Origin: an uncultured Candidatus Saccharibacteria bacterium
GTDB taxonomy: Bacteria > Patescibacteriota > Saccharimonadia > CAZBQI01
Length of the DNA: 64,000 nt
Assembly (NCBI GenBank): GCA_964494105.1
Contig: CAZBQI010000001.1
Location: 3,126 to 67,125, forward strand
Reading direction: 5' to 3'
Part shown: piece by piece, positions 4,509-25,843 of the stretch
How positions within the stretch are numbered: position 1 is the first letter of the stretch
How the letters are laid out: each line of letters begins with the position of its first letter
Translations under genes and position numbers: made by a program
The notes under the pieces: model-generated
Told to the model about the DNA's origin: nothing
The model's input: the letters and a program-made list of their open reading frames with translations, nothing else
The model's database searches: none

Positions 4509-5996
4509 CTAATAGACTTCGTAATTGATTTGAACAAGCGAGGAGTCGATACCAGAATCCTTTAGATAGGCGAGGGCCTCTTCGCGATAACGATTAATAA
4601 GTTCATCATAAGATGCGCCATTATTTTGGGCCGAGTAGTCTATTCCCTGAACCGGTCTCGGGGCGAATGTCTTAATAGTAACAAGAGGCTTGTTACTAGC
4701 TATTGTATAAGTAATTTCATAATGGTCTTCGGTTCTTGGTAGTGCCTTATTAAGCTTATCTATCAAATTGGCGTTCCCGGTCTTTGTGAACATTATTCTA
4801 AATAGCCCACCATTGTTTGACGGTGAAGATGTTCCGAAATATATCTGGTTCTGTGTGCAAGCAATGCTGGTGAGATCGTTTTGCTTGGTCAATAAGTTAG
4901 TAGATCTATTTTCGAGGTTATAAAGCCAAAGCCCAAGAGTATCGCCAAAAGTCACCTTGTTTTCATCACACCAGCTAATAGGAAGTGTCTTGATTTGTTT
5001 TTTCTCGATTGTTCCAACAACGGCCTTCTTTTCGGTGTCATATATTTTGATGACACTATCGAGTGCGTAGGCCAGAAGTTTACGACTTGGCGACCAGGCA
5101 GCAGCCACTACAATTCTGCCCTCATCCAGTACTCGCTTTTCTTTACTATTAATATCAAGAATGGTCAGTCCGCCACCTTGATACTCTTCAAAATTTACCT
5201 CGTTTAGTTTTGCTTTTTCATTGTCGGTATGTGGGTAGCCCGAAGGGATGCTAAATACCGCCACCTTGCGCTCGCCATCATAGGCAATATTTGAATCGGC
5301 ATCTTTCGTAGAAAATACTTTTCTAGCTACCAATTCACCCTGTTGTTTTACAAAAACATCCTTACCTGTGCTGACGGCGAAACTGCTGGAGTCCACTCCG
5401 AGTGCGATTTTTGATGTACTGGTTAGTTTTGTAAAGACGGTGTTGGTTATCTCTTGCTTGTTGTTATTTACAATTTCGTATAGCTTGCCCTGGTTGGTGA
5501 TAGCTATGCCGTACTGATTATTTGCTTGAAGGTCGTTTATCCCAAAAAGATCAGTTAAATATGGCTGGGTTATACCACTTGCACCGTCGTATTTATTGGC
5601 AATTTGGGTTGTTGGGACCACAAAAATAACATCATTATTTTGGACAGAAACGTTTCTTGCCGGCTGGTCGGATAAGTCTTCGACTGGTTTCTGTGGTTCG
5701 GGCTTTAAAGCAACTTTGGTGGCGCTCCTTGGGTTAATACTGACTACCATTGTGCTGGTGTTGCCGTTATAGTCGGCAAATACGGCGTATTGCCCGCGAT
5801 TTAGTCGACGTTTTAGTTCGCTAGATTTTTTCTTGGCTAGCTCTTGGCCGGCTTCGTTTTCGATGCGTAGCGTATAGTTATCGTCGGGAGCGGTGATAAT
5901 TACTGTGCCACTATGCCACCAGCGCCAGCCAACAAATATAATACCGACTACAATTAAGGCAACGGCACAGATTTGTAATATACGTTTGATATTCAT
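4509..5996 (-). CDS. Membrane-anchored (N-terminal TM) beta-rich surface protein, possibly TolB/PD40-like propeller; hypothetical
   Basis: 495 aa; N-terminal hydrophobic anchor ILQICAVALIVVGIIFVGW then beta-strand-rich Ser/Thr/Asn-rich sequence (WSPSRKLLAYALDS); first gene of the minus-strand T4SS-like block. Confidence 0.5.
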   Translation of the reverse strand: MNIKRILQICAVALIVVGIIFVGWRWWHSGTVIITAPDDNYTLRIENEAGQELAKKKSSELKRRLNRGQYAVFADYNGNTSTMVVSINPRSATKVALKPEPQKPVEDLSDQPARNVSVQNNDVIFVVPTTQIANKYDGASGITQPYLTDLFGINDLQANNQYGIAITNQGKLYEIVNNNKQEITNTVFTKLTSTSKIALGVDSSSFAVSTGKDVFVKQQGELVARKVFSTKDADSNIAYDGERKVAVFSIPSGYPHTDNEKAKLNEVNFEEYQGGGLTILDINSKEKRVLDEGRIVVAAAWSPSRKLLAYALDSVIKIYDTEKKAVVGTIEKKQIKTLPISWCDENKVTFGDTLGLWLYNLENRSTNLLTKQNDLTSIACTQNQIYFGTSSPSNNGGLFRIMFTKTGNANLIDKLNKALPRTEDHYEITYTIASNKPLVTIKTFAPRPVQGIDYSAQNNGASYDELINRYREEALAYLKDSGIDSSLVQINYEVY

Positions 5997-5999
5997 CTT

Positions 6000-7985
6000 T
6001 TAAAGACTACTCCCTCGCCCGCCGTCAGGGAAATCATCACAAAGTGTTGGTTCCCCAACACCGTCCGGCACAACCACGCCATTCGTTAGTGGGTTAACAG
6101 TACCATTGGCACTGCCCTGGACGCCACCTTGCTTCTGGACGTTAAAATGCAAGTGTGCGCCGGTGCTTCGACCAGTATTACCTGATTTGGCAATTTCTTG
6201 GCCCTTGGTAACAGTATCGCCTTCGGCAACCAAGATTTCGCTCAAGTGTCCGTAGAGTGTCCAAAAGCCATTGCCATGATTAATAACAATGGCGTTGCCA
6301 TACCCGCTAGTTAAGCTCCCGCTAATACCGGCAAATTCTACCGTGCCGGCATCAGCCGCAAAAACTTTACTACCAACGGGAACACCGATATCAAGCCCGG
6401 AGTGTCTGCCGTAACTCCGTACATCCCCCCAGCAGGCAGTGAGGGTTCCTGCTGGCTCGACTGGCCACTGGAACTGGCCACTGGCGGTGGCGCCGGGGCA
6501 GCCATTTGTATTACCCGCTGCCGGCGTGGTAGCGCCACCGGTACTAGGCGCTACGCCCGGATTACCTACTACTCCACCGTACAGCCAGTAGCCCCGCAGT
6601 ACGGTATTTACATACTCACTAGAGTGGTTATAGTGCCAAATGGCGTTCGAAATACTGTGGGCTTGCGCGCCACCGTTTGGATCGCCCAAGGGGGCACCAA
6701 TAATTCCGCCATTTGCCGCCAAATAATTAGCTGCGCCATACGCCGCGTCGGTTAAATTTTGAATATCAGCCACGCCATTCTCATCGCCGTCTACACCATA
6801 AGCTCTCCAGGTATCATTTAAGAACTGAAACGGTCCATTTGCCCCCTTGTCGGAACTTGCCCAAGGGCCTTCATGGTTAGGCCAGCCGGCACCATTTCCA
6901 CCGCCATGCTCGCCGTAGTGGAAAATTCCCGCAATCAACGCCGGCTCGACATTGAACCGCGCCCCGGCGGCGGTAAAAATACTATTATATGGCTCCGGTA
7001 CGCCATTTGGGCCGGTAGGCAGGGTGCCGGGAGGTAGCCCAGACCCGAGTGCGCTACAGGTACAACCATCCGCGGCGTCATTAGCGGCGGCATCACTTGG
7101 GTCGCTACCGCTACTGCCGGTAACCTCGGTAGCAATAAGTTCGGCGAGTGATACGGCGCCGGCGCTTGTGTTATGAATAAAATCGCCCTCTAGATAATCG
7201 TTGGTATCAGCCGGTGGGCTGGTGTTGGTACGCAGACTTACGTTGGTTGGGCCGGGAATGTTTTTCGGGTCACTGGATGCGCCAAAGTTATTTTTGTACT
7301 CACTAATCACGCTGTAGCCCAGGCTCCCCGCCTCGTCATAAATTACTCGGTTGCGTCGGGAGTATTCACCCGGGTTGGCAGTTGCGCCAACATCAACGTA
7401 GTAGTAATTGGCATCGGGGTTTAAATCTTTCAAGTCACCAACAAAGCTTCGCAGTCTGGTAGTAAAGTTGCTTTCTACTGTGGGTGGGTTCGTGCCCAAT
7501 TCAATAATAATGGCATCGGCTTGCCGGATGGCTTCGGCATCGGCCGTTAGAGCATCATCAATTGTTTGGGCGGGGGGTGCCCCAGGAAAATTAGCACCAC
7601 CCGAAGTGTACGATCTGCCCGGTACAGCGTTACGAGTTAGTTGCCAGTTATTGTTGCGAAACTTATCTTCGATAGTGCCTTTGGTTTGAAGATGGTAACC
7701 CTTGGAGTCACCAATTAAATAGGCTTTTTTAGTTTGCGCGTCGTCAACACTCGGGCCCTGTTGGGCATCGGCAATTTGCTCGGCACAAGCACCGTTATAG
7801 TGCTGGGTGTTGTGCAGGATGGCATGGATGTTAAGGTCGGTTATGGCCGACACCGACTGCAATGGCACCAGCCAAGTGCTAACTAGTGTCAGCATAAATA
7901 CGCCGATTACGAATTTATGTACGTGATTTATGGGTAAGGCTTGCGGACGAGAAAACAAGCCGATCATTTCTTTACCAGCTTCCAT
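6000..7985 (-). CDS. Secreted multi-domain peptidoglycan hydrolase: N-terminal SGNH/GDSL-like esterase, central lysozyme-like lytic transglycosylase, C-terminal M23 (LytM) endopeptidase; VirB1-like cell-wall opener for the adjacent T4SS
   Basis: 661 aa; signal/TM FVIGVFMLTLVSTWLVPLQSVSA; GDSL-like block YLIGDSKGY plus IIIELGTN; transglycosylase-like GPFQFLNDTWRAYGVDGDENG..DAAYGAANYL; M23 HSGLDIGVPVGSKVFAADAGTV..GYGNAIVINHGNGFWTLYGHL..TGRSTGAHLHF. Confidence 0.75.
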   Translation of the reverse strand: MEAGKEMIGLFSRPQALPINHVHKFVIGVFMLTLVSTWLVPLQSVSAITDLNIHAILHNTQHYNGACAEQIADAQQGPSVDDAQTKKAYLIGDSKGYHLQTKGTIEDKFRNNNWQLTRNAVPGRSYTSGGANFPGAPPAQTIDDALTADAEAIRQADAIIIELGTNPPTVESNFTTRLRSFVGDLKDLNPDANYYYVDVGATANPGEYSRRNRVIYDEAGSLGYSVISEYKNNFGASSDPKNIPGPTNVSLRTNTSPPADTNDYLEGDFIHNTSAGAVSLAELIATEVTGSSGSDPSDAAANDAADGCTCSALGSGLPPGTLPTGPNGVPEPYNSIFTAAGARFNVEPALIAGIFHYGEHGGGNGAGWPNHEGPWASSDKGANGPFQFLNDTWRAYGVDGDENGVADIQNLTDAAYGAANYLAANGGIIGAPLGDPNGGAQAHSISNAIWHYNHSSEYVNTVLRGYWLYGGVVGNPGVAPSTGGATTPAAGNTNGCPGATASGQFQWPVEPAGTLTACWGDVRSYGRHSGLDIGVPVGSKVFAADAGTVEFAGISGSLTSGYGNAIVINHGNGFWTLYGHLSEILVAEGDTVTKGQEIAKSGNTGRSTGAHLHFNVQKQGGVQGSANGTVNPLTNGVVVPDGVGEPTLCDDFPDGGRGSSL

Positions 7986-8959
7986 AGCTTATTTTCAAAA
8001 CCGGCCACTAAATCGGCCTTTGGCGTGTTGGAGATGTTGGTGGGTATGGGTTTATCGGCCAGCACGCCGTACTCGGTTGTAGTGTTGGTTTTTAAATCAA
8101 GAATTTGGTATTTTACATCGACCCCATTTGCACGAGCTATCTGCAGGATATCTCCATGTAGAGCAAAATTGGTCTGTTCTTCACTATCGATTTGGTTTTG
8201 GGCCGAATCAACCACAACCATTTTTCCGTTAGCATCGACTACCAATAGTTTGTCGTTTTCTCTTAGCAATAATGACTTCTTTTGACTATCTACGTTATAG
8301 ACTTCAACGCCCGCCATTTCTTTTACAGTGTTGCCCGCGGTATTAATAATTCGCAGGTTGCCAACTAGTGACTCGACCTCGTTGTAAGACATTAACCCAA
8401 TGTTTTCACCAATGGCGTAGACCTCTTCGATGTTTGTGCCAGTATAAGAATGTAATACTTGGCCGTCGATTGATTCAACCGTGATGGTACTGGTGCCATC
8501 AGGACTGGTTTTTAAAATAATTACACTACCGTCATTACGCCAGACTGCTTGGCTACCGGTGAATGAACGAAGTTGTTGTTTTGAGCCGACATCGAAAATT
8601 ACACCCAAATTCTCTCGCACTATGCTAAAGTGCTTAGAATCTTGACTGATATCTAAGGCGCCCTCGCCGTACGCACCTAAGTTGGTTTTGCTTTGCCCGT
8701 CATAAATAACCCACTCTTGCAGTTTGCTTTTATAGACTATCCCTCTGGCATAACTAATTAAGCGACGGCTTTGACTATGATTAAGATTGCTATCTTTGTT
8801 TTCTGGCGGGATGTAGGTGTTATCGACAAATTCCGCTTTTAGGGTGCCACGCTCCTCGGGTTTATTCGAGGGTCTAACGAAAATTGCCCAGGCTGTACCA
8901 AAGAGAATTAGAATTGCGACTAAAATTACGATAATTCGCTTGCGACTACTAGTTTCCAT
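7964..8959 (-). CDS. Membrane-anchored hypothetical protein (start taken at internal METSSRKR; the 9163 start of the ORF track would overlap the upstream gene by 215 nt)
   Basis: Basic stretch then TM (RKRIIVILVAILILFGTAWAIF) followed by ~300 aa beta-rich ectodomain; ATG at 8959 overlaps the stop of the 1061-aa gene by ~11 nt. Confidence 0.5.
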   Translation of the reverse strand: METSSRKRIIVILVAILILFGTAWAIFVRPSNKPEERGTLKAEFVDNTYIPPENKDSNLNHSQSRRLISYARGIVYKSKLQEWVIYDGQSKTNLGAYGEGALDISQDSKHFSIVRENLGVIFDVGSKQQLRSFTGSQAVWRNDGSVIILKTSPDGTSTITVESIDGQVLHSYTGTNIEEVYAIGENIGLMSYNEVESLVGNLRIINTAGNTVKEMAGVEVYNVDSQKKSLLLRENDKLLVVDANGKMVVVDSAQNQIDSEEQTNFALHGDILQIARANGVDVKYQILDLKTNTTTEYGVLADKPIPTNISNTPKADLVAGFENKLWKLVKK

Positions 8960-11900
8960 TGATCGACCAGTGCCAAGGTTCGCTCGGCAAGTTTTGAAAT
9001 CCATAATTTGTGGAGTTGGCTGCCAGCCATTGGTAGCAGGCAGTAGAGCGGTACCGGCAGTTATTAAAATCAATCGCCACTCCCCAGCCGTGATTTGATC
9101 TACCAACGGGCGCAGTTGGTACTCGACACTGGCTGGAAGATGTCCAGTTAGGCGGGCAACCATTGGCTTGGCCGGCGCGGAGCTGACCGGCCAGGTCGCG
9201 GAAGCCGCTACCGCTGAGGATTACACCAGCGTCTTCGGCGTCGCTGATCATATTCTGCACACACTGAGCAACGTCTTGGCGGACACCACGGTTGATGACA
9301 GCGTTGTTCCCTCGGCTGATAATTGGCTCAACTATCGGTATTCCGGGTGCGTTTCCGTCGGCGGGTACCGGCGCTGGCAAAGCCGGGCTTCCTGGTTGGG
9401 GCGAACAGCTAGTGGTAAAGGCCGGGCCTCCGCCTATGTTACCAACGGCAGCGCCCACGGCAGCGCCAGTGCCCAGCCCGCTGTCATCCTCTTCGTTTTG
9501 GAGCGACGTCGATTCCCGTAGTATGAATTCGTCTTTTTTATACAAAACAAAACGCTGGCCTATCACACTTTTTTGTAAGCTATCGCCCCCATCACCAAAA
9601 CAGTCAGCGTATTCAGAACTGTTAAACCGCACAATCATGCGTGCGGTGCTGTCTTTGAAGCACTTGCCATATTTTGCCTCGAGCGCATCGTACTGTGGTT
9701 CTACAATTTTTGCGTTTTCTCGGGGGCACCATGATTCATCGTCGATGCATTTATCAAATAAGTTCAACGGCACGCCGAATTGCTTAATGCCATAGGGGCC
9801 TTCACCCGAGGCCGCCCAAATTGGCTGGCTACGTTCGCTGTACGAGATAACTTTTTCGTGGACGAAATTCATAGGGCTAATGTTGGCAAGTGCGGTTGTG
9901 GCGAAAGTTCTGACTTCGCTTAGGCTGGTTGGCACGCGGATGACAAACTGGGCTGCCAGCGAGCGAATATTACCGGTGTCAAATATACGGGCGTACCAAC
10001 TGCGCGTGCTGTCTTTTTCGTACTGGATACGGTTAAGTTCGGCTGAGTATTCGTTAATCTGATCAGGCGTTAAGACCATGGCACCGGATTGCTTGTCCAT
10101 TTCTAGGCCAATTATCTCAGTCCCGGCACCGGCCTTGTTAAAGCCGGCCGACGCTTCTTCTTGCGAAGCGTTATCGGAGCCCGAGTAGGCCTCGACCATT
10201 CTGGGCATCAGCCAGTCGGTCATTAAGATTTGAACTGTTAGTGCTCCACCTGACTTAACGACTGTTGTTCCGAGCACCTTAATTGCTAGCTTCATTGTTT
10301 GCCATACGCCCTGAGCTACAACTTCCGACGTACTTAAACTCCATATTGCTAATAGAAATTCTACGAGACTAGTTATGGCCTGACCAATATAGCTTAGAAT
10401 GGCTCTACAGGTAGCCTCAAAAGCAAAGTCAGCTTTTGGACCAAGAGCATTCCAAGAAGTTTCGAGTATGTTCTTGATAGCTTCAGGTGATTCACCCATA
10501 GCTTTCTGAGGGTATAGTTCCTCGGGCATGTCGTACTTTTCGCCTTTCGAGGCCATCCCCAGGCCACTCCGATATTCGGTGGAATACTCAAAGTCGCCCA
10601 ATGAATCTACGCAGGCCTGGACTGCTTTCGAGGTAACATCCCCTTCTTTTTGCTGATCGGCACAATTAAATATGCTGTAGGAAAACCGGGCATAGTTTTC
10701 ACTGCGCTTTTCAATGACTTTCTCGATGTTATAGACGTAAGCGTCATATAATAAGCATATTGTAACTGCTACTGCATTCAGCACGCTAAGACCTCTCAAA
10801 ATGGCAAATGCAGGCCTAGCCTTAAATGATTCGATGATTCGCTCTAATATCCTGGTTCGCTGGGGGACGGCTGCTTCGCCGGCCGCATCAGCTGCTTCAT
10901 CCGTAAAATCACCGTTCTTTATGCGGTCTTGGTTCCTTTTTGTTTCGTCGTCAACCTCTTGGCTAAGGCTAACAACTCGATCAGGATCGCGTATGGCTAG
11001 GTCTTGACGTTTTTGATCGATATTTAGTGCTTCGACGCGGTTTTTTCCTTTAAATATTCTGCCTAAATCGTCAAACCGAATTAGTCGTAGTTTTAGTTGA
11101 CGTCGTATATCGAGCAGTAGTTTTCCGCGCCAGATTTTATTTCTCATGGCGTTGATAGATAATATTTCCTCCTCGAGTTCCTTAACAGCGGCCATTTTTT
11201 GCGCTCGAGTTGCATTCTCTGGTAATAAGTACTCGCGACCGGTGGTTAAGTTGCGATAACCACGAAAGTCATTGGTCAAGCGTAAGTTCCACTTGCGCCG
11301 GCTTTTCATAACTAGTTCTATGCCATCAGCTCGCCCAAGGCGCGTCAGTGCCGATTGCGGGTTATAGCCGACCAACAAATCTGTTACGCCCCCGCGCCGG
11401 ATAGGGTTTAGCCGACCGGTGCTTTCGGCCGACACCAAGCCCTCGCTGGCAACGAGCTGACCAACCCGCCTAGCTAGCTGTAGGTTAAAGCGAGCCAGGT
11501 GAACGTCAATCAAATATTGTTTAACGTGCTCGGGTTTGTAAAGGAACGCGAAAAAGAACAGCAATACCCCCATACCGGCGACCACACCCAGCACACCCCA
11601 CACACTAAAGCCCAGCAATTTGCGAACAAACATTTTTCGAGCTGTTTTTCGGACCGGGTGTTTTTTGTGCTTACTTTTTTCGTGATAGTAAGATTCGCTT
11701 GCATCATCGAAGAATTCTTTGGCCGATTCGCCTAGCAACCTGCCGGTTGCTTGTGAACCAACCGACTTAATCAATTTTTCTTTTAGCTTATTTCCGGCCT
11801 CTTTATCGGCGACGTCATCTTTGTTTTGATGGCTGGTAGCCAGCTGGTCGAACTGGGCAATTTCGCCTGGTTGCAGTGGCACGGTTGGCTTGTCGACCTG

Positions 11901-12134
11901 TGGGCTGGTAGGTGTACCTATTGGGTTGGTTGGTATGTTTGGGGCGCCTAGATTTGGAGTACCAATTTTTGGAGCTGATGATGTCTTAGCCGAGCGAAAC
12001 GGCACCCTCGGCTTAATTGGCATGCCGGGGTGACGGGGGGGCTTTATTGGTAGGGCTGAGTCACTGCCAAGGCCGGGAGTCTTGCGACGATCTTTGTCTG
12101 GATTGCGCTGGCGCAAGTCTCCGCCCTGATTCAT
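8949..12134 (-). CDS. Giant (1061 aa) single-pass membrane protein with Pro-rich cytoplasmic N-terminus, large extracytoplasmic region and a C-terminal LAS/M15B (VanY-like D-Ala-D-Ala carboxypeptidase) domain; T4SS-associated
   Basis: N-terminal PKIGTPNLGAPNIPTNPIGTPTSPQVDKPTVPL; TM LLGFSVWGVLGVVAGMGVLLFFFAFLY; C-terminal SGFRDLAGQ ... RSNHGWGVAIDF matching the M15 SxHxxGxAxD zinc-binding signature; stop overlaps VirB4 start region (operon). Confidence 0.65.
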   Translation of the reverse strand: MNQGGDLRQRNPDKDRRKTPGLGSDSALPIKPPRHPGMPIKPRVPFRSAKTSSAPKIGTPNLGAPNIPTNPIGTPTSPQVDKPTVPLQPGEIAQFDQLATSHQNKDDVADKEAGNKLKEKLIKSVGSQATGRLLGESAKEFFDDASESYYHEKSKHKKHPVRKTARKMFVRKLLGFSVWGVLGVVAGMGVLLFFFAFLYKPEHVKQYLIDVHLARFNLQLARRVGQLVASEGLVSAESTGRLNPIRRGGVTDLLVGYNPQSALTRLGRADGIELVMKSRRKWNLRLTNDFRGYRNLTTGREYLLPENATRAQKMAAVKELEEEILSINAMRNKIWRGKLLLDIRRQLKLRLIRFDDLGRIFKGKNRVEALNIDQKRQDLAIRDPDRVVSLSQEVDDETKRNQDRIKNGDFTDEAADAAGEAAVPQRTRILERIIESFKARPAFAILRGLSVLNAVAVTICLLYDAYVYNIEKVIEKRSENYARFSYSIFNCADQQKEGDVTSKAVQACVDSLGDFEYSTEYRSGLGMASKGEKYDMPEELYPQKAMGESPEAIKNILETSWNALGPKADFAFEATCRAILSYIGQAITSLVEFLLAIWSLSTSEVVAQGVWQTMKLAIKVLGTTVVKSGGALTVQILMTDWLMPRMVEAYSGSDNASQEEASAGFNKAGAGTEIIGLEMDKQSGAMVLTPDQINEYSAELNRIQYEKDSTRSWYARIFDTGNIRSLAAQFVIRVPTSLSEVRTFATTALANISPMNFVHEKVISYSERSQPIWAASGEGPYGIKQFGVPLNLFDKCIDDESWCPRENAKIVEPQYDALEAKYGKCFKDSTARMIVRFNSSEYADCFGDGGDSLQKSVIGQRFVLYKKDEFILRESTSLQNEEDDSGLGTGAAVGAAVGNIGGGPAFTTSCSPQPGSPALPAPVPADGNAPGIPIVEPIISRGNNAVINRGVRQDVAQCVQNMISDAEDAGVILSGSGFRDLAGQLRAGQANGCPPNWTSSSQCRVPTAPVGRSNHGWGVAIDFNNCRYRSTACYQWLAANSTNYGFQNLPSEPWHWSINGN

Positions 12135-14257
12135 GAGTGCGTCTGCCTTAAGTCAATAGTGGTGCCGGCTTTAACGTCATCAGACGGAGATTTCTGCGCC
12201 GGGGCTATTGGTGGCTGGGTAGCGTCTGCACTACTAGGGGCCGATGGCTCAACGTTAGGTGCTTTGCTATCCGGCTGATTATTTGCCGGTGCTTCCGTCT
12301 GCGCTGGTGGCTCAGATGATGGCGCCAGTTGTGGTCCGGGTAGTGTAATTTTTGGTTGGGGTTTTCCCTGTTCTTCGTTGATTTGCGCCACACTCGCAAT
12401 AACACTGGCGGTTGTAGCGCCTTCTTCTTCCATGGCTTCAATTGCCTTGATTTGCTGAGGGTTAGTGGTAATTAGTTCAGTTTCGGTACTTGAAGCATCG
12501 ATTCTGACGTGAACGTGATTGGAGCCGGCAAAAAATAATCCCTGGCCAACGGGGAATTGGCTGAGTTTTTTGTGTTCGGAATCGGTGAGTTTAAAGGTAC
12601 TGGCTACAATGTCTACCGCCGATGGTGCTTGCTTGAGGAGCAACTGGATGCTGGAGTTAGCAACCACTGCTCGGCCCATGCGCGAGCTTAGAAAGTCCTC
12701 GACGTCTTGAGAAATTGTGGTTAGCCCTAGGTTGTATTTACGGGCACGTTTAGCCACGCTAAACAGAAAATTAGCCGAATCTTCGTATCTCATTAATTGC
12801 CAGGCCTCGTCGACAATTAAATAGCGTTTGATTTGGTCGGATTTTACCCGATTCCAGATGTGATTGAGAATAATATACATAGCTACCGGTCGTAATTCGT
12901 CTTCGAGGTCGCGAATATTGAAAACAATAAAGTCGTTTTCGATGCCAACGTTTGATTGGTTCGAGAAAATACCCGAAAACGTCCCGGTAGTATACTTTCG
13001 TAGTCGCTGAGCCAACGCCGGACCATAACCTTCCATCGATACCAGTGTTTCGTATAGGTCGCCAATGGTTGGGGGTGTGGCCGAATGAGTAAGTGGATCG
13101 GCTGTAATGCCGGCTTTGGCGTAGGTGGCAATTAGTGCTTGGTCTAGGTCGCCTTCTTCGGCGGGGCTAATTTGTCCACCCATCATTAAGCGCAACATAC
13201 CATGAAGGGTAATGAGGTTTGCACGCAGGGAGTTTTCGGCCTCCTCTTGGTCGAGCACATGGGGTAAATCAAACGGGTTAAAATAGGTTTTGCTGGTTAG
13301 GCTTAAGCGCAGATAGGCTCCACCGACTGCTGTGCATAGCCTTTCGTATTCGTTTTCGGGATCGATAATTAGAATTTGAATACCCATCATCAAACTTCTA
13401 ATGGCTTCGAGTTTTACCGTAAAACTCTTACCGGCACCAGATTTTGCAAATACCACTAAGTTGGCATTTTCAAGGCTAAAGCGGTCAAAAATAACCAAGC
13501 CGTTATTATGCATATTAATGCCGTAAAGTATGCCGGCCTCTTGGCTTAAGTCGGCCGAGGTAAACGGAAAGCTGGTAGAAAGCGCACCCGTATCCATGTT
13601 GCGTTTTATTTGGAGTTGATCGGTTGCTTGTGGCACGGTTGAATTCAAACCCTGTTCCATTTGGACGGTGGCCGGCTTACTGTAAACAAGATTCTGACCA
13701 AATATCCCCTCAATTTTGTGCTGAGTGTAATCTAGCGCATCAAGTGTAGAGGCGTAGATGGTTAGGTACAAACAAAAACGAAAGAACCTTTCCTCGCCCA
13801 CCTGCAGGCTGTCTCGAAGCTGTTCAGCATCGTTAATGGCGGCTTCGGTGCCCGGGTCTCGCACTCGGCCTTTTTCGGCTAATATCTGCTCGGTGGCCTC
13901 TAGCTGACCAACTTTTTTGCGAAGGTTTTCTAGCACCACTCGGCTTTCAACCGGGTAGATAAACATGCTGACATCAATCGATTCGTCGATGTTAATTATT
14001 TCCGAAAGCCAGCCGGTGTAAATTTGTCTGGGATAGCCATAAACATAAATGGTGCGGGCAAAACGCGAACCGAGCTTAAAAAAGGAAGATTGAAATTCAA
14101 TAGAGGGTGGTGCGATAAAATCGCGCAAGCTGGTAACACCCTTGCGGAACTCTTCTTCAACCTCGCGCTTTTCCCGAAGTTGCTGTTGTTCGGCTTTCGT
14201 TAGGCTGGGTTTTTTACTAAAAAGGCCCATTTTTTTCTTCCCGTGCAAATAGCACAT
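12131..14257 (-). CDS. virB4: Type IV secretion ATPase VirB4/TrbE/CagE family (C-terminal ~700 aa portion; see upstream ORF and frameshift)
   Basis: Walker A VVFAKSGAGKSFTVK, Walker B LIVDEAWQLM, Gram-positive VirB4 N-domain motif DFIAPPSIEF..YPRQIYTGWL; Pro-rich C-terminal tail. Confidence 0.85.
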   Translation of the reverse strand: MCYLHGKKKMGLFSKKPSLTKAEQQQLREKREVEEEFRKGVTSLRDFIAPPSIEFQSSFFKLGSRFARTIYVYGYPRQIYTGWLSEIINIDESIDVSMFIYPVESRVVLENLRKKVGQLEATEQILAEKGRVRDPGTEAAINDAEQLRDSLQVGEERFFRFCLYLTIYASTLDALDYTQHKIEGIFGQNLVYSKPATVQMEQGLNSTVPQATDQLQIKRNMDTGALSTSFPFTSADLSQEAGILYGINMHNNGLVIFDRFSLENANLVVFAKSGAGKSFTVKLEAIRSLMMGIQILIIDPENEYERLCTAVGGAYLRLSLTSKTYFNPFDLPHVLDQEEAENSLRANLITLHGMLRLMMGGQISPAEEGDLDQALIATYAKAGITADPLTHSATPPTIGDLYETLVSMEGYGPALAQRLRKYTTGTFSGIFSNQSNVGIENDFIVFNIRDLEDELRPVAMYIILNHIWNRVKSDQIKRYLIVDEAWQLMRYEDSANFLFSVAKRARKYNLGLTTISQDVEDFLSSRMGRAVVANSSIQLLLKQAPSAVDIVASTFKLTDSEHKKLSQFPVGQGLFFAGSNHVHVRIDASSTETELITTNPQQIKAIEAMEEEGATTASVIASVAQINEEQGKPQPKITLPGPQLAPSSEPPAQTEAPANNQPDSKAPNVEPSAPSSADATQPPIAPAQKSPSDDVKAGTTIDLRQTHS

Positions 14258-15134
14258 CCCGTGAGTCGCCCTTGCCTTTTGTTACTATCGGCGCCTCGAG
14301 TTCATTAATATCAACCAGGTGTTCGGCAGCTGAAGTTATTGGGTTGTAAACATTGTAGTAAAGCTCTATTAGTTCCTGAGTATTAAGTGTAACGGCGTTA
14401 ACCGACATGTCGTTTAGGCCGTTTAAAACGACAAATGCTCTTTCCTTGAGTTCGTCAATGTAGCGTTTATAGTCGACTGAGTTGATGTTGATGGTTTTAT
14501 GTTTATTGCCCATTAAGGCATTTAAGCTTAGTATTCCACCACTCTTTACAGATAGATTTGGGTGGTAGGGAACGACCACATAAAATTGCTTGCTCATGAT
14601 GTTGGAATTTTCAATCAAGTACTTGATGTAGTCGATATAATCCTCCATTAATAGCCCAAGCATTACCTTTTCTTGATCGCGTTGAATTTTCTCTAGTTTC
14701 TCGATGTAGTTATTTAAATCAACCCGCTGTGAGCGCACGTAAATTTGAATTTCAAAAAAGAGCGAGTTTAAAAAAGACTGGTAGCTGGATTCAACGGCTT
14801 CTCTTTCCTGGCTACTCATGAGGTCGAAGTTGATCGACTGGCACATTACTACCGCCCGCAAACTGCCATCGCGCATAATTACCAAGCCGTCGCGAATTTC
14901 GGCGATTTGCAAAGAATTCTGAGTAGTTGTGACTGCTTTTTTATTGGGCTTTTTTGATTCGGGTTTGGCTGTAGTGGTAGTACGAGCTTTTTGGGCCGGT
15001 CTAGAGGCTTGATTAGCTGGGGCATGCGTGGTGGCACCTCCCAGTACCGGCCGAGGCGGAGGTGTTGGCGCAGTCGTAGGCTGACTGTTTGGATTAGACG
15101 GTAGTGTTGGTTGTATATTTTGATCTGGTGGCAT
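14217..15134 (-). CDS. Probable N-terminal portion of VirB4 (Pro-rich N-terminus + VirB4 N-domain motif), separated from the ATPase ORF by a frameshift in an A7 run
   Basis: 305 aa; IRDGLVIMRDGSLRAVVMCQSINFDLMSSQEREAV resembles the conserved start of VirB4/TrbE proteins (..DG.l..kDGsl.a.....g..f.l.s..E); overlaps the downstream ORF by 41 nt around T7 at 14230-14236. Confidence 0.55.
   Translation of the reverse strand: MPPDQNIQPTLPSNPNSQPTTAPTPPPRPVLGGATTHAPANQASRPAQKARTTTTAKPESKKPNKKAVTTTQNSLQIAEIRDGLVIMRDGSLRAVVMCQSINFDLMSSQEREAVESSYQSFLNSLFFEIQIYVRSQRVDLNNYIEKLEKIQRDQEKVMLGLLMEDYIDYIKYLIENSNIMSKQFYVVVPYHPNLSVKSGGILSLNALMGNKHKTININSVDYKRYIDELKERAFVVLNGLNDMSVNAVTLNTQELIELYYNVYNPITSAAEHLVDINELEAPIVTKGKGDSRDVLFAREEKNGPF
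14230..14236 (-). repeat. A7 homopolymer (T7 on plus strand) at the junction of the two VirB4 reading frames
   Basis: Read directly: gaagaaaaaaatggg on minus strand; a 1-nt change in run length fuses the 305-aa and 708-aa ORFs. Confidence 0.8.
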
Positions 15135-15311: not shown

Positions 15312-15977
15312 TTAAACGCTTTTAGCGGGCGTTTTTGCCAATTGCATTTTGGCAATTGCCTGGGCTTTGACTGCGGTCTTGCTTGATGCTTCGAGCTTGG
15401 CAATATCTTTTGCGTCAGGGTTATTATGTACATCGAGCATGTCTTCGTACGAATGCACCTCTATCGGCTCTTCTGGCTTGGCATTTAAACTATCCATGCT
15501 GATTAGTCGATCACCGTCGTCGACCACCAAATTACCCACACCGACATTGATATTTGGGTCTTTGGCTATCCAGCCACGGCTATCAACAATTTTGGCTAGT
15601 TGTTCGAGCTGACCATGAACCTGTAAAATACTGACTTTATCTGGCAATATTGCCTTGAGTTTGGGTGGCACCAGATGAATATTCTCGTGCAGGCCTTCTG
15701 AATTCCACTTGCGAACCCTGGGTTTAAAGCGAAAATTTAGCGCCGCTAGTAAATATATTTCCACCGGCTGGTCTGGGCGACGGTAAATTCCCAGCACAAG
15801 GCATATTAGCGTTATCGGTAGTGGAATCAGTACTAGCGGTTGGTATAGCTTATAGAAAACGTAACACAGCGCTATGCCAATAGCGGCTATTACCAGAAAA
15901 ATAAATTGCTTGAAGGTAAATGGGCCAAGCAGTTTGTCTTCGGCTTCGACATCTTGGGGGATTTTATATTGAGCCAT
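15312..15977 (-). CDS. PrgI/VirB3-like small membrane protein with two N-terminal TM helices and a long soluble tail (start at internal MAQYKIP)
   Basis: MAQYKIPQDVEAEDKLLGPFTFKQFIFLVIAAIGIALCYVF..LVLIPLPITLICLVLGIY: N-terminal motif and 2-TM hairpin typical of Gram-positive VirB3 analogues; lies immediately upstream of VirB4. Confidence 0.5.
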   Translation of the reverse strand: MAQYKIPQDVEAEDKLLGPFTFKQFIFLVIAAIGIALCYVFYKLYQPLVLIPLPITLICLVLGIYRRPDQPVEIYLLAALNFRFKPRVRKWNSEGLHENIHLVPPKLKAILPDKVSILQVHGQLEQLAKIVDSRGWIAKDPNINVGVGNLVVDDGDRLISMDSLNAKPEEPIEVHSYEDMLDVHNNPDAKDIAKLEASSKTAVKAQAIAKMQLAKTPAKSV

Positions 15978-16173
15978 AACATAAGTATTATGTATCAAGT
16001 GTCAAGTATCAAGCGGATTGGTTCGGACTTGGGCCAATTAAAAATTAGATTATATGGAATCTCTAAACTTGTTACTACCGTCTACAAACTACCATTTGGT
16101 GGGTTGCTTTGATTCACAACCGGGCCGGCATCGTCCTAAATATGGGTTTTTTGGTACAGACCGCTTATGGTTA

Positions 16174-16680
16174 TCAAGTTGATGATGCTGTCTGGCTGTT
16201 TGGCCGAGCGGCTGATGGGGTTTTTTGGTAAACGCCGGCAATGGATGATTGCTCGATAATGTGCCCTTGCATAGCAGCGAGCAGATCCTTTTTGCTTACG
16301 TTCGGATTGTCACTAAACAGCGTATCTAGGGCGTAGAGGGTGAATCTATACAAGTGCGCACCATTTGGCGGGCAAGGCCCGGTGTAAGCATTTTCGCCGG
16401 CGCTGTTTTTGCCCTGTATGCATCCTGGGGGCACTATGCCTTCCTCGATTAGCGTTGTATCTGGGGGGATGTTAAACAACACCCAATGGTCGTACACTTC
16501 GCCGTTACCGGCTGGGTCGGTGGCGGCATCGGGGTCTTCAACAATCAGCGCAAAGCTTTTGGTGTTTGCGGGCGGATTAAAAATCCGCAAATTGGGATTA
16601 ATATTCCGGCCTTGGCAGGTATAGGTCGAGGGAATATGTACAGACAATGTAAAATCTGGTGAAAATAAATTTAAGGCCAA
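16174..16680 (-). CDS. YbhB/YbcL family phosphatidylethanolamine-binding protein (PEBP/Raf kinase inhibitor-like)
   Basis: 168 aa; DPDAATDPAGNGEVYDHWVLFNIP and HLYRFTLYALD motifs characteristic of bacterial PEBP family. Confidence 0.8.
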   Translation of the reverse strand: MALNLFSPDFTLSVHIPSTYTCQGRNINPNLRIFNPPANTKSFALIVEDPDAATDPAGNGEVYDHWVLFNIPPDTTLIEEGIVPPGCIQGKNSAGENAYTGPCPPNGAHLYRFTLYALDTLFSDNPNVSKKDLLAAMQGHIIEQSSIAGVYQKTPSAARPNSQTASST

Positions 16681-20699: not shown

Positions 20700-21107
20700 T
20701 CATTGGCTTTTTACTACGATTGCGTTAAATATTTTTACTAATTCTATAGCTTCTCGTTGCAGAACAGTCACCGTAGATTCTAACTCCCTTGGTGTGTCCA
20801 AAAGCCTTAGCCAATAACCGCTTTCTTTTGCTTCTTTTCTAGATATTTTTACTCGCATTACAAAGTCTTTCTTGCTAAGCGATTCATTTGCCTCTATATT
20901 ATTTGCGCCAACAGACCCAGATGAACGTACAAGCTGTTTGCAATCTTCAATATTTGCAGTTGTTTTTGAGAGTTTTTTTACAAGCGCACGGCAATCTTGT
21001 GCAAAACTGAATGTTCTTTCTTCTAAATCATATTGTTTACTATTTTGAACATTGGAGTTTAAGACTTGTTTGCTATTTGGAGTTTGAGTTTTGGAATTTG
21101 TGATCAT
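20700..21107 (-). CDS. Four-helix-bundle protein (TIGR02436-like; the family often encoded within 23S rRNA intervening sequences)
   Basis: 135 aa; SFAQDCRALVKKL..SSGSVGANNIEANES..KDFVMRVKISRKEAKESGYWLRLL matches the conserved core of this family. Confidence 0.65.
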   Translation of the reverse strand: MITNSKTQTPNSKQVLNSNVQNSKQYDLEERTFSFAQDCRALVKKLSKTTANIEDCKQLVRSSGSVGANNIEANESLSKKDFVMRVKISRKEAKESGYWLRLLDTPRELESTVTVLQREAIELVKIFNAIVVKSQ

Positions 21108-23344: not shown

Positions 23345-23767
23345 ATGCTTAAAACCACAAATCAAAAATCTTTCATTTTTGCGCTCATCGGTCTAGCCAT
23401 TGTTAGCTGTTTTTTGCTGGCCACGTTAGTTAGTTCTTCTTTTGTCGTGGCTGCGCCCACACCGACCCCCGTCGGGGGTTCAGCTAGTGGTTGCACCGAG
23501 TTGGCGATTGATGTGGGTGCGGCAGCTTGTGGGAAAAATCGACTGATGAAATATATAACCGCTTTGGTGCGGTTTCTTTCGCTGGGGGTTGGAATAATCG
23601 TAGTGATTATGATTATTGTGGGTGGCATTCAATACACTAGCTCTGGCGGTGATGCTGGGGCGGTAGCAGCAGCCAAGAGCAGGATATTTAATGCTATTTT
23701 GGCACTGCTGTTGTATATTTTTACCATTGCCATATTAAACTGGCTGGTCCCAGGGGGAATAGTTTAA
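23345..23767 (+). CDS. VirB2/TrbC-like T4SS pilin paralog 1 (signal peptide, Cys pair, C-terminal 2-TM hairpin)
   Basis: 140 aa; CTELAIDVGAAAC; C-terminal GVGIIVVIMIIVGGIQYTSSGGDAGAVAAAKSRIFNAILALLLYIFTIAI = two hydrophobic helices around a GG loop. Confidence 0.55.
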   Translation: MLKTTNQKSFIFALIGLAIVSCFLLATLVSSSFVVAAPTPTPVGGSASGCTELAIDVGAAACGKNRLMKYITALVRFLSLGVGIIVVIMIIVGGIQYTSSGGDAGAVAAAKSRIFNAILALLLYIFTIAILNWLVPGGIV

Positions 23768-23835
23768 ATGTGTATTATATTTGCGTATCGATTGCAATTA
23801 ACTGAGATGATACCTGGCTTAAGGAATAGTTTTAC

Positions 23836-24603
23836 ATGAAAACAGCTCAAAAAATCTATCTCTTATTAGTGATAAGTGCTTTTACATTTGGCATGAGTTT
23901 TGTTTCTAGTTTTATCTCTAGCCCGCCTGTAAAAGCTGCTTCGGAGCTACAATTTCACTTCTTTTGTCGTAGTGGCGCCGCAGTAGTCAAAGAAACAGTC
24001 AGTGGTGGCACAGCAATAAAATGTGAAGACGGCTCTGCTCTTGGTAGGCACATTGGTGATGACGAGGAAAATATATTCACCACTTTTAATGTCGAATGCG
24101 CCAGAGGTACACCCAATTTAGATTCGGTTTCTAATATATTTAGCTGTGATGGTGGCGGGGGTGCTGAACCACAGGTAACAAAAGTAGATGATGATAGTGC
24201 AGGCCAGCCACCACCTGGCTCTGGAGGTGGCTCTGGTGGAGGTGGTTCTGGCGGCGGATCTGGAGGCGGTGGTACCAGTGGCGTTTGTGGTAGTGGCGAC
24301 ATGTTATTTGGAATAATTCCAACTTGGTACAAGTACCTGGAGTTTTCACCCGATTGCACAGTAATAATAAGCAAGATAGATGACTTTTTAAAAATCGGCG
24401 GGGCGGTAATTGAAATTGTGCTACGTCTGGGGGCAATAGCGGCTATCGGGTTCATCATCTTTGGTGGTTTTCGCTTTGTTACTAGCATGGGCGACCCCGA
24501 AGGCATCAAAAACGCGCGGAATACCATCATTAATGCTGTAATTGGTTTGGCTTTAATGATTCTTTCTACCACTATCGTTAGCTTTATAGCGGGGAGGCTG
24601 TAA
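23836..24603 (+). CDS. VirB2/TrbC-like pilin paralog 2 with long variable region and Gly/Ser linker
   Basis: 255 aa; signal peptide; GSGGGSGGGGSGGGSGGGGTSG linker; C-terminal AIAAIGFIIFGGFRFVTSMGDPEGIKNARNTIINAVIGLALMIL. Confidence 0.55.
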   Translation: MKTAQKIYLLLVISAFTFGMSFVSSFISSPPVKAASELQFHFFCRSGAAVVKETVSGGTAIKCEDGSALGRHIGDDEENIFTTFNVECARGTPNLDSVSNIFSCDGGGGAEPQVTKVDDDSAGQPPPGSGGGSGGGGSGGGSGGGGTSGVCGSGDMLFGIIPTWYKYLEFSPDCTVIISKIDDFLKIGGAVIEIVLRLGAIAAIGFIIFGGFRFVTSMGDPEGIKNARNTIINAVIGLALMILSTTIVSFIAGRL

Positions 24604-24890
24604 TGTTTGAAAACACAATTTTTTATACGCTTGCCCAGCTAAGGGGTGCGCATGGGTTGCCGAACCCCGACACATCTAACGTGCTCGAGACCGTGCTTAA
24701 GACTTCTTTTGTAATAATTGGGGCGCTCGCAGTGATATTTGTAATTATTGGCGGGTTTCAATACGTTCTGTCGGGTGGCAATCCGAATAATACCAGTCGG
24801 GCCAAAGAGACAATTATCTATGCCATTGTGGGTTTGGTGGTTTCGCTTCTGGCATTTAGCATAGTAGACTTTGTGGTAGGAAAAGTATGA
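24603..24890 (+). CDS. VirB2/TrbC-like pilin paralog 3 (short form)
   Basis: 95 aa; FVIIGALAVIFVIIGGFQYVLSGGNPNNTSRAKETIIYAIVGLVVSLLAF; start overlaps the preceding stop (ATGA...). Confidence 0.55.
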   Translation: MFENTIFYTLAQLRGAHGLPNPDTSNVLETVLKTSFVIIGALAVIFVIIGGFQYVLSGGNPNNTSRAKETIIYAIVGLVVSLLAFSIVDFVVGKV

Positions 24891-25261
24891 AAAAAGCAGT
24901 GATAGCCTTATTCGTTCTAGTGATTGCCGGTGCGCTTTCGCTGGGTTCTGTATGGGCCGACACCAAAACCGAGGTTTGCGAAGGGCTTAAGCAAGGTAGT
25001 CCGAGCGTACAGTGCGATCCGGATAGCTCCGATAAGATTATTGTTGATACAATTGATAAGGTTTTAGGGGTGTTGTCGTTTGCAATTGGGGCGCTCTCGG
25101 TATTGATGATAATCTTTGGTGGGTTTCGCTACGTTGTCTCGGGTGGTGACAGCTCGGGGGTAGAAGGCGCGAAAAATACCATATTGTACGCCATTGTTGG
25201 TTTAGTTATTGCCTTTTTGGCGCGGCCGATAATCGTTTTCGTGATTGGGTGGTTTGTTTAA
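24887..25261 (+). CDS. VirB2/TrbC-like pilin paralog 4
   Basis: 124 aa; signal peptide; CEGLKQGSPSVQC; LSVLMIIFGGFRYVVSGGDSSGVEGAKNTILYAIVGLVIAFL. Confidence 0.6.
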   Translation: MKKAVIALFVLVIAGALSLGSVWADTKTEVCEGLKQGSPSVQCDPDSSDKIIVDTIDKVLGVLSFAIGALSVLMIIFGGFRYVVSGGDSSGVEGAKNTILYAIVGLVIAFLARPIIVFVIGWFV

Positions 25262-25843
25262 ATGAAGTTACTTACTGCTGTTTGTTGCCTGATGTTTTTT
25301 GGTTTATTCGTGATGAGTATGCCGGTATTTGCCCAGGACAGAAAAATAACCCCTCGACCAGGTGCTACAACTCCTGCACCTGAGGCAACTCCGGGCGTAC
25401 CCGAAGCAACCCCACCAGCAAGTGGTGGCGGAGGTTCAGGTAGCGGTAGCGGAAGCGGAAGTGGCGGAGGCAGTACTAATCCCTTTGCTGCCGAAATTTG
25501 CGAAGGCGCCAAGAATGGCGCCGGCAGTGATTGTTCCGGCTCGTCTTTTCTAAAAGGCCTAAAGAATATTGCCAATATTATCTTGTTTCTAATTGGGGCG
25601 GTAGCGGTAATAATGATAATTATCGGCGGGTTTCGCTATGTTGTCTCGGGTGGTGACAGCTCGGGGGTGGAAGGCGCGAAAAACACCATATTGTACGCTG
25701 TGATTGGCCTAATAGTGGCGGCGCTTTCTTTTGCGATTGTAAATTTCGTTATAACATCAATTTCCGGTTCCGGTAGTGGCGGGGGGACCGGGAGTACACC
25801 GGGTAGCTCAAGCGGACCACCCGGGGGGTCCAGTGGACCATAA
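25262..25843 (+). CDS. VirB2/TrbC-like pilin paralog 5 with Gly/Ser linkers on both sides of the pilin core
   Basis: 193 aa; signal peptide; SGGGGSGSGSGSGSGGGS; CEGAKNGAGSDC; VAVIMIIIGGFRYVVSGGDSSGVEGAKNTILYAVIGLIVAAL; C-terminal SGSGSGGGTGSTPGSSSGPPGGSSGP. Confidence 0.6.
   Translation: MKLLTAVCCLMFFGLFVMSMPVFAQDRKITPRPGATTPAPEATPGVPEATPPASGGGGSGSGSGSGSGGGSTNPFAAEICEGAKNGAGSDCSGSSFLKGLKNIANIILFLIGAVAVIMIIIGGFRYVVSGGDSSGVEGAKNTILYAVIGLIVAALSFAIVNFVITSISGSGSGGGTGSTPGSSSGPPGGSSGP

Follow-up and report, generated by a model that had tools for sequence, protein, structure and literature searches.

How does the type IV secretion system (T4SS) of a bacterium that lives on other bacteria get through peptidoglycan, and whose wall is opened for it? 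The question is raised by a 64,000-nucleotide stretch of contig CAZBQI010000001.1 (hereafter the window), in which a T4SS operon carries a gene for one protein with three predicted wall-active domains. An earlier note on this DNA had read the protein as an SGNH esterase, a lytic transglycosylase and an M23 endopeptidase in a single chain. Our analysis confirms its layout as an N-terminal hydrophobic signal or anchor, an SGNH domain, a compact MltB/SLT_2-like glycan cutter and an M23 peptidase, with the predicted catalytic residues kept in all three domains. We consider it fairly likely that this protein, hereafter the hydrolase, is the wall-breaching enzyme of the Saccharibacteria T4SS, a functional counterpart of VirB1, TraG and PrgK and a positional counterpart of SEML1_0006. 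We assign the window to a Saccharibacteria (TM7) epibiont from the relatives of its VirB4: the best 80 share 63–73% identity and come almost all from Candidatus Saccharibacteria, Saccharimonadales or Patescibacteria, and VirB4 relatives occur in at least 578 Saccharibacteria/Patescibacteria species genomes. No rRNA lies within the 64-kb window.

Architecture of the hydrolase

The open reading frame (ORF) runs as the earlier note had given it, with 661 amino acids (aa) counted from the first ATG on the minus strand (Table 1), and the motifs quoted there are all in place: YLIGDSKGY (residues 89–97), IIIELGTN (159–166), GPFQFLNDTWRAYG (384–397), H528-x3-D532 and H611-L-H613-F. A second in-frame ATG (M7, 7967-7965) shares the letters ATGA with the TGA stop codon of the upstream gene, and the NCBI protein P0001, 100% identical to the hydrolase, has 655 aa; for these two reasons the true start is probably M7 and the product 655 aa long. 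The ATGA overlap and a gap of 3 nucleotides (nt) between the hydrolase stop and the start of the next gene are marks of a translationally coupled operon. The sole strongly hydrophobic stretch of the protein is F25–L42, with the hydropathy peak (KD19 1.86) at residue 25 and a helix at residues 19–39 in the AlphaFold2 (AF2) model, and the N-terminus is predicted to be either a Sec signal peptide or a signal anchor. The linkers between the domains are modelled with low confidence. As a basis for comparison, we sampled the gene that follows the big post-VirB4 protein in 66 Saccharibacteria species loci and the window itself (n = 67, alignment A6; hereafter the slot proteins).

Starting from the C-terminus, the M23 domain matches Pfam Peptidase_M23 over residues 527–620 (E 3.5e-30), and phmmer against the PDB gives matches down to 1.9e-17 (Csd/TagE, ShyA, zoocin A, LytM, lysostaphin). 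In a Foldseek search, the full-length AF2 model matches LytM, lysostaphin, zoocin A and ShyA at root-mean-square deviations of 1.4–3 Å. Residues H528-x3-D532, H580 and H611-x-H613 are present, and are invariant in relatives down to 49% identity. The tail that follows is modelled with low confidence, but its sequence (TVNPLTNG..P.GV...C..FPDGGR) shows strong conservation among close relatives, with columns T629–G636, C649 and F652–R657 invariant down to the same 49% identity; it may be a docking or secretion signal.

The SGNH assignment of the N-terminal domain is supported along four lines: homologues, motifs, family profile and model. Of the domain searches that the earlier note had proposed as a check, those for M23 and SLT_2 match the hydrolase directly, and the SGNH family was recovered by way of homologues and a family profile. 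The outcome that the note had named as refuting, a failure of profile searches to support the SGNH or transglycosylase domain, therefore did not occur, although the direct scans for SGNH by themselves would have counted as such a failure. Lipase_GDSL_2 is matched by 9 of 13 aligned homologues (best E 6e-13), and G92, S94, E162, G164, T165, N166 and H271 are invariant across that 13-homologue alignment. These residues include G92 and S94 of block I (G92-D93-S94, with the nucleophilic Ser), block III (G164-T165-N166, with the oxyanion Asn) and the His of block V (D268-F-I-H271), in which D268 is invariant in close relatives and the Asp is missing from some distant ones. A candidate for block II is G123 in NAVPGRS, a column that holds G in 11 and S in 4 of the SGNH-bearing slot proteins. 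A profile of the domain matches 38 solved SGNH structures in the PDB. The AF2 model of residues 80–292 (pLDDT 89, pTM 0.89) has the three-layer alpha/beta/alpha SGNH fold, apart from a low-confidence inserted loop at about 236–262, and Foldseek finds 61 PDB matches to it at E ≤ 0.001, almost all SGNH esterases, with TM 0.6–0.65. Structure prediction, the other computational check proposed at the outset, hence recovers the SGNH fold from this model and the M23 fold from the full-length one.

The middle domain matches Pfam SLT_2 with 36.7 bits against a gathering score of 24.3 (E 3.6e-9), and TIGR02283 MltB_2 with E 1e-6, far below the cut-off of that family. A profile built from the family and its actinobacterial relatives matches SltB3, Slt35 and MltB at E 8e-10 to 6e-9. 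Common to the middle domain and the MltB family are a Glu-bearing helix and the motif GAxGxxQF(M/L)PxT(W/F)..Y..D.dGDG..D, present here as G384-P-F-Q-F...T392-W393 and the loop D399-G-D-E-N-G-V-A-D407. The probable catalytic residue is E359, which lies at the end of a helix predicted by AF2 at 348–359, in a column that is Glu in 66 of the 67 slot proteins; the profile alignment sets the catalytic ‘vETr’ Glu of Slt35 one column ahead of E359, a register ambiguity of one residue. Unlike the family 3 enzymes MltB, Slt35 and SltB, the hydrolase has conserved cysteines that bracket its core, and the extra alpha and beta domains of MltB are absent, so that the middle domain is the core alone, at about 145 aa. 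Of the earlier call of a lytic transglycosylase, the MltB/SLT_2-like core stands, whereas a transglycosylase cannot be told from a hydrolytic muramidase by sequence. Such prediction of lytic or hydrolytic product is unreliable, since in PrgK the ‘SLT’ domain was found to act as a muramidase (PMC11323569).

The cysteines that flank the core, C308 and C496, lie in columns that are Cys in 61 and 66 of the 67 slot proteins, and the pair is kept with either an SLT_2-like or a Phage_lysozyme2 core and with any flanking domains, which suggests a conserved disulfide clamp across the glycan cutter. Redox-dependent dimerisation has been seen in PrgK (PMC11323569). Outside Saccharibacteria, the nearest relatives of the core are actinobacterial lytic transglycosylases of about 365–380 aa (P0019–P0038, for example from Actinoallomurus), with 50–57% identity over about 85 aa. 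The hosts of cultivated Saccharibacteria belong to the Actinobacteria, and with the closest outside relatives in the same phylum, acquisition of the core from a host is possible.

The hydrolase gene has the highest GC content in the window (53.1%, against 45.8% for the window and 42–50% for its neighbours); the linkers reach 65–68% and the three domains 50–54%. The high value could reflect a Gly/Ala/Pro-rich composition or a foreign origin.

The hydrolase slot in Saccharibacteria T4SS operons

The earlier placement of the gene in a T4SS block holds, with VirB4/TraG P-loop and PrgI matches (Table 1) and a VirB2-like pilin array at 23.3–25.8 kb. Along the minus strand the order is PrgI/VirB3-like gene, TraC-like gene, VirB4, 1061-aa protein, small ORF, hydrolase and 495-aa protein, beyond which recF, dnaN and dnaA lie on the opposite strand. 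The order PrgI, TraC-like, VirB4, protein of about 1,000 aa, hydrolase, protein of about 400–500 aa and recF-dnaN-dnaA is shared throughout the class and kept in relatives down to about 30% identity, and the same order is seen around hydrolase homologues at 46% identity and below. A housekeeping autolysin unrelated to the T4SS was considered and rejected, the operon position being conserved across 66 species loci. The hydrolase has the features of the T4SS-associated class, with a place in the T4SS operon near virB4 and an export signal or anchor joined to a lysozyme-like domain. VirB1 profiles rarely accompany virB4 outside Paceibacteria, and other glycosidases may fill that role; in Southlakia epibionticum, epibiotic growth depends on the peptidase and lysozyme homologues that directly follow virB4 (PMC12102498).

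The slot gene is nearly always a modular wall hydrolase. By Pfam, Phage_lysozyme2 occurs in 40 of the 67 slot proteins, Peptidase_M23 in 15, Lipase_GDSL_2 and CHAP in 9 each, Amidase_3 in 8, SLT_2 and NlpC/P60 in 7 each, Amidase_2 and Peptidase_C39_2 in 4 each, Glucosaminidase in 3 and GH3 in 1. A second census of the same proteins, with hidden Markov models built from the hydrolase family itself, finds SGNH in 14, an SLT_2-type core in 7 and a Phage_lysozyme2-type core in 46; both cores are found in one protein, from L024, giving a lysozyme-like core in 52 of 67. The exact set of SGNH, SLT_2 and M23 is confined to two slot proteins, those of the window and of L025, and SGNH with Phage_lysozyme2 and M23 to one (L016); a combination of Amidase_2, Phage_lysozyme2 and M23 was also found by Pfam among the sampled proteins. 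An exhaustive phmmer search over 1.84 billion representative proteins gave 95 matches at E ≤ 1e-30, and the exact SGNH, SLT_2 and M23 set is found there in about 12 clusters. Among 187 collected relatives, SGNH, lytic transglycosylase and M23 occur together in 12–13, SGNH with Phage_lysozyme2 and M23 in 8, and lytic transglycosylase with M23 but without SGNH in 24. In a further 7, SGNH and lytic transglycosylase are followed by a C-terminal domain, here called ALTC, in place of M23. A scan of genome contigs with the hydrolase patterns AGIFHYGE and SISNAIWH found no relative.

Read together, the slot sequences describe a three-part cassette, with an optional SGNH, amidase or glucosaminidase module in slot 1, a lysozyme-superfamily cutter in slot 2, and an M23 or cysteine peptidase or ALTC in slot 3. 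The hydrolase is an uncommon permutation of that cassette, and its SGNH module is especially uncommon. The two kinds of slot 2 core are different lysozyme-superfamily families: MAFFT aligns E359, G384, Q387 and W393 across SLT_2-like and Phage_lysozyme2 cores, and the idea that they are one orthologous domain was rejected on an hhalign probability of 2% (L024 excluded). SGNH accompanies 5 of 7 SLT_2-type cores against 6 of 44 Phage_lysozyme2 cores (Fisher p = 0.003, phylogeny uncorrected), a preference that is suggestive, the counts being phylogenetically non-independent. The bias is in the direction expected if a true transglycosylase more strictly needs a free C6-OH.

ALTC is a domain of about 150 aa that ends in ...LPSGWPTW and has no Pfam match in those members that were scanned. 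It is carried by P0012, P0013, P0015 and P0017, by L028:15114-17600 and L086:14497-15774, and at the C-termini of the big proteins in L021, L023, L024 and L026; as a domain not characterised so far, it may bind the wall or be catalytic. Some relatives of the hydrolase are more extreme, among them P0003 (973 aa), P0050 (660 aa), P0072 (461 aa) and L024:15362-17812. One relative has a GH3 (NagZ-like) domain between SGNH and lytic transglycosylase, which brings the catalytic domains to four; SGNH domains in tandem, three or two of them, occur in others, and the cassette of L024 joins a Phage_lysozyme2 core to an SLT_2-like core.

At a fixed place in the operon the domains turn over much as in endolysins, which argues that variable host walls supply at least part of the selective pressure. 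The turnover also opens a reading that we hold to be possible but rather unlikely, namely that the cassette serves chiefly as a weapon against the host, which is brought to the contact zone or displayed there and cuts the actinobacterial host wall and not the cell’s own, with swappable domains matched to host wall chemistry and an SGNH module for hosts with O-acetylated peptidoglycan. So extreme a turnover at one conserved slot, reminiscent of phage endolysins, is hard to explain if the own wall is the sole substrate, and a possible signal-peptidase site at V45-S-A47 would free a soluble enzyme; the T4SS is, moreover, indispensable for growth on the host, and neither a coupling protein nor a relaxase can be recognised in it (PMC10633639). 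The characterised Gram-positive T4SS hydrolases, PrgK and TraG, nonetheless act on the wall of the donor itself (PMC11323569). A phage or plasmid origin of the SGNH and lytic transglycosylase part was rejected, as tblastn found nothing among 50,697 phage and 72,556 plasmid records, which leaves no link to trans-acting lysins. Action on the host overlaps with a wall-breaching role at the T4SS and does not exclude it.

The big protein that follows VirB4 varies as well. Its C-terminal position holds VanY/M15B in the window and M23, SGNH or ALTC in other Saccharibacteria, and the operon therefore carries a second, independently shuffled wall-active module, for four predicted wall-active domains in the window. 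No family was matched by the small ORF between the big protein and the hydrolase. Within positions 360-26000 of the window, the whole T4SS cluster adjoins dnaA-dnaN-recF at the presumed replication origin, a linkage kept in distant Saccharibacteria (loci L001, L002, L005 and L006), and the cumulative GC skew shows a steady rise beyond about 20 kb. Genes for a phosphatidylethanolamine-binding protein (PEBP, E 5e-38) and for a ‘23S rRNA-intervening sequence protein’ homologue, at 16174-16680 (−) and 20700-21107 (−), lie in the interval from the T4SS core to the pilin array.

Table 1 Position of the hydrolase, its parts and the neighbouring T4SS genes in the window
Feature	Coordinates	Strand	Remarks
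Full tri-domain hydrolase ORF	6000..7985	-	661 aa, stop codon at 6000-6002; 655 aa from the probable M7 start
N-terminal hydrophobic segment, residues 24-47	7845..7916	-	h-region F25-L42, then S-V-S-A before I48
SGNH/GDSL esterase domain, residues 85-291	7113..7733	-	Homologues, family profile, AF2 model
Linker 1, Gly/Ala/Ser/Pro-rich, residues 292-327	7005..7112	-	Contains C308, C310; pLDDT <50
Compact MltB/SLT_2-type lysozyme-superfamily domain, residues 328-472	6570..7004	-	Putative catalytic E359
Linker 2, Gly/Ala/Thr/Pro-rich, residues 473-503	6477..6569	-	Contains C496
Peptidase M23 (LytM/lysostaphin-type) domain, residues 504-620	6126..6476	-	H528-x3-D532, H580, H611-x-H613
C-terminal tail, residues 621-661	6003..6125	-	No known family; pLDDT <50
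495-aa protein, N-terminal hydrophobic segment, weak beta-propeller-like matches	4509..5996	-	Gene kept at this position in relatives
Small conserved ORF between 1061-aa protein and hydrolase	7964..9163	-	Start probably internal; 317-aa counterpart in L001
1061-aa T4SS protein directly after VirB4, C-terminal VanY/M15B DD-peptidase (residues 950-1057)	8949..12134	-	Counterpart SEML1_0007
VirB4-type T4SS ATPase	12131..14257	-	P-loop_TraG E 3.4e-28
TraC-like gene	14217..15134	-	Assigned by synteny
PrgI/VirB3-like gene	15312..15998	-	PrgI E 1.8e-14
Array of four VirB2-like T4SS pilin genes	23345..25843	+	T4SS_pilin E 4e-4 to 1.6e-9

Proposed action on peptidoglycan

We infer the enzymatic activities, the O-acetyl substrate, the order of action and the wall that is cut (own, host or both) as follows. 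The hydrolase would be exported or anchored through its N-terminal hydrophobic segment and act at the site of the T4SS, where three active sites on flexible linkers would work in sequence on one patch of peptidoglycan. The SGNH domain would first strip the O-acetyl group from C6 of N-acetylmuramic acid (MurNAc), a block to lytic transglycosylases and muramidases. The glycan strand would next be cut by the MltB-like domain and the peptide cross-links severed by the M23 domain, which would open the wall locally for the secretion channel or pilus. O-acetylation at MurNAc C6 is described as controlling lytic transglycosylases and blocking lysozymes (PMC6627197, PMC6174289), and lytic transglycosylases can act only once the group has been removed. 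With the esterase fused ahead of the glycan cutter, that block would be lifted in cis.

The first step leans on the relatives of the SGNH domain, for which we infer a de-O-acetylase role. Its best profile matches are to the C-domain of Staphylococcus aureus OatA (6VJP/6WN9, E 2.4e-8), with PatB also matched, and these closest solved relatives by sequence (E 2.4e-8 to 2.5e-4) have blocks I, III and V in common with it and act on the MurNAc C6 O-acetyl group. That they are peptidoglycan O-acetyl enzymes fits the sequential model. The OatA match is limited to profile positions 68–195 of 197, the C-terminal two-thirds, and therefore misses block I. Both enzymes are transferases, and these top matches, together with the appearance of PatB in the fold search, would also suit an O-acetyltransferase that acetylates the wall, for example to shield the cell’s own wall around the channel. 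We regard this as highly improbable, as OatA and PatB draw acetate from an AT3 or MBOAT membrane partner, none of which is fused or adjacent to the hydrolase within the operon, and O-acetylation would inhibit the adjacent glycan cutter.

A different envelope ester is another candidate substrate for the SGNH domain, such as an acetylated wall polysaccharide or teichoic acid, mycolyl-arabinogalactan, or host lipids and lysophospholipids taken by a fatty-acid auxotroph. The leading matches of the fold search are carbohydrate esterases (CE2, CE3, acetyl-xylan esterases), TesA/lysophospholipase L1 and PAF acetylhydrolase, the homologue P0016 was named ‘lysophospholipase L1-like esterase’ by JGI, and Saccharibacteria lack fatty-acid synthesis (PMC10633639). 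This reading is nevertheless distinctly unlikely in our judgement: the domain shares one chain with two domains specific for peptidoglycan, its best sequence-profile matches are peptidoglycan O-acetyl enzymes, and slot 1 is elsewhere filled by peptidoglycan amidases or a glucosaminidase, which points to a role directed at the wall.

Several results weigh against sequential wall breaching by three active domains. For the SGNH domain, Pfam and NCBIfam scans of the hydrolase itself return no SGNH family at E ≤ 1, and no Ape1 structure is found among the PDB profile matches at E ≤ 1; the nearest solved relatives are transferases and the fold search is led by generic carbohydrate esterases and thioesterases, for which reason we leave the substrate specificity wide. 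For the glycan cutter, the SLT_2 match spans only profile positions 150–200 (50 of 292), and the top 50 fold-search matches of the full-length AF2 model consist of M23 matches and one PatB match and contain no lytic transglycosylase, so that the domain is called from sequence profiles. The association of SGNH with lytic transglycosylase may be shared ancestry of one clade. Finally, the LytM and CHAP domains of PrgK have no activity and down-regulate its muramidase domain (PMC11323569), and with two of its three domains catalytically silent, a three-domain layout is no proof of three activities. By the same token, the glycan cutter of the hydrolase could be its only catalytic domain, with SGNH, M23 or both acting as peptidoglycan-binding or autoinhibitory modules. 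We find this quite improbable: the M23 zinc site (H528, D532, H580, H611, H613) is intact and invariant down to 49% identity, whereas the LytM domain of PrgK is degenerate and lacks both HxxxD and HxH, and S94, N166, D268 and H271 of the SGNH domain are also intact.

Returning to wall breaching at the T4SS, a bolder form of it is that the hydrolase is one allele of a fast-reshuffled, host-directed ‘wall drill’ on an essential T4SS, its domain set tuned to the wall chemistry of the host, with SGNH stripping host O-acetyl groups so that a true lytic transglycosylase, which needs a free C6-OH, can cut. We put this forward as speculative and, on present evidence, unlikely. If true, the host range of uncultured Saccharibacteria could be predicted from their type of cassette, and the fusion would be a single-chain version of the Ape1-LtgA partnership. 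To our knowledge, no T4SS before that of Saccharibacteria had been shown to be essential for its carrier bacterium. The wall hydrolase encoded after VirB4 belongs to a gene class that is essential in Saccharibacteria and is among the least conserved parts of the T4SS, and the cassette census may relate to host range. The mix-and-match slot, the presence of SGNH in about one fifth of lineages and its preference for the MltB-type cutter offer testable handles on three questions: does the cassette act on the host wall, is host peptidoglycan O-acetylation a barrier that it removes, and does cassette type track host range? A de-O-acetylase, a glycan cutter and a cross-link cutter in one chain would have a practical interest too, as a lysin for Gram-positive walls that are O-acetylated and resist lysozyme.

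Comparison with known systems

The counterpart by position is SEML1_0006 of Candidatus Southlakia epibionticum ML1, scored essential by transposon sequencing (Tn-seq). The T4SS layout of the window matches SEML1_0005-0010, and SEML1_0006 occupies the same slot, after a protein of about 1,100 aa that is tailed by a DD-peptidase and follows VirB4. It is of similar size (643 aa) and has three wall-hydrolase domains as well, but their families differ, with a glucosaminidase (PF01832) and a phage tail lysozyme (PF18013, Phage_lysozyme2), both annotated as lysozyme-like, and a cysteine peptidase in place of SGNH, SLT_2-like and M23. We regard the pair as analogous variants of the cassette and not as full-length sequence orthologues. 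The earlier description of the hydrolase as an unusually complete tool goes too far, since PrgK and SEML1_0006 each have three domains and cassettes of two or three domains are the norm at the Saccharibacteria slot.

The pairing of an SGNH enzyme with an enzyme that cleaves glycan strands has a precedent in Neisseria, where the de-O-acetylase Ape1 (SGNH) needs the lytic transglycosylase LtgA for optimal function (PMC7083599). Ape1 and LtgA are two proteins in a non-covalent complex, whereas in the hydrolase SGNH and glycan cutter share one chain, and no specific sequence relationship between Ape1 and the SGNH domain was detected. We do not file the domain as a member of the Ape family; by analogy, it plausibly works like one.

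Among monoderm-type T4SS operons with PrgI and VirB4, the counterparts are PrgK of Enterococcus faecalis pCF10 (the ‘DELTA’ class) and TraG of pIP501, which like the hydrolase have an N-terminal membrane segment and an extracellular lysozyme-like glycan cutter joined to peptidase domains. PrgK shares with it the number of predicted hydrolase domains, three, one of them M23/LytM. The domain order differs, being SGNH, SLT_2-like, M23 in the hydrolase, LytM, SLT/MUR, CHAP in PrgK and SLT, CHAP in TraG, and the hydrolase has no long cytoplasmic N-terminal domain. The Saccharibacteria system is chromosomal, by oriC and essential, as opposed to the plasmid-borne, conjugative systems of PrgK and TraG. 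No SGNH module has been reported for PrgK or TraG, and our literature search found none described in a T4SS hydrolase or among Saccharibacteria wall enzymes, within a searchable literature that is limited and leaves absence unproven. Multi-domain wall hydrolases of T4SSs are thus known; what is new in the hydrolase is a member that bears an SGNH module along with a fully ‘armed’ M23 domain.

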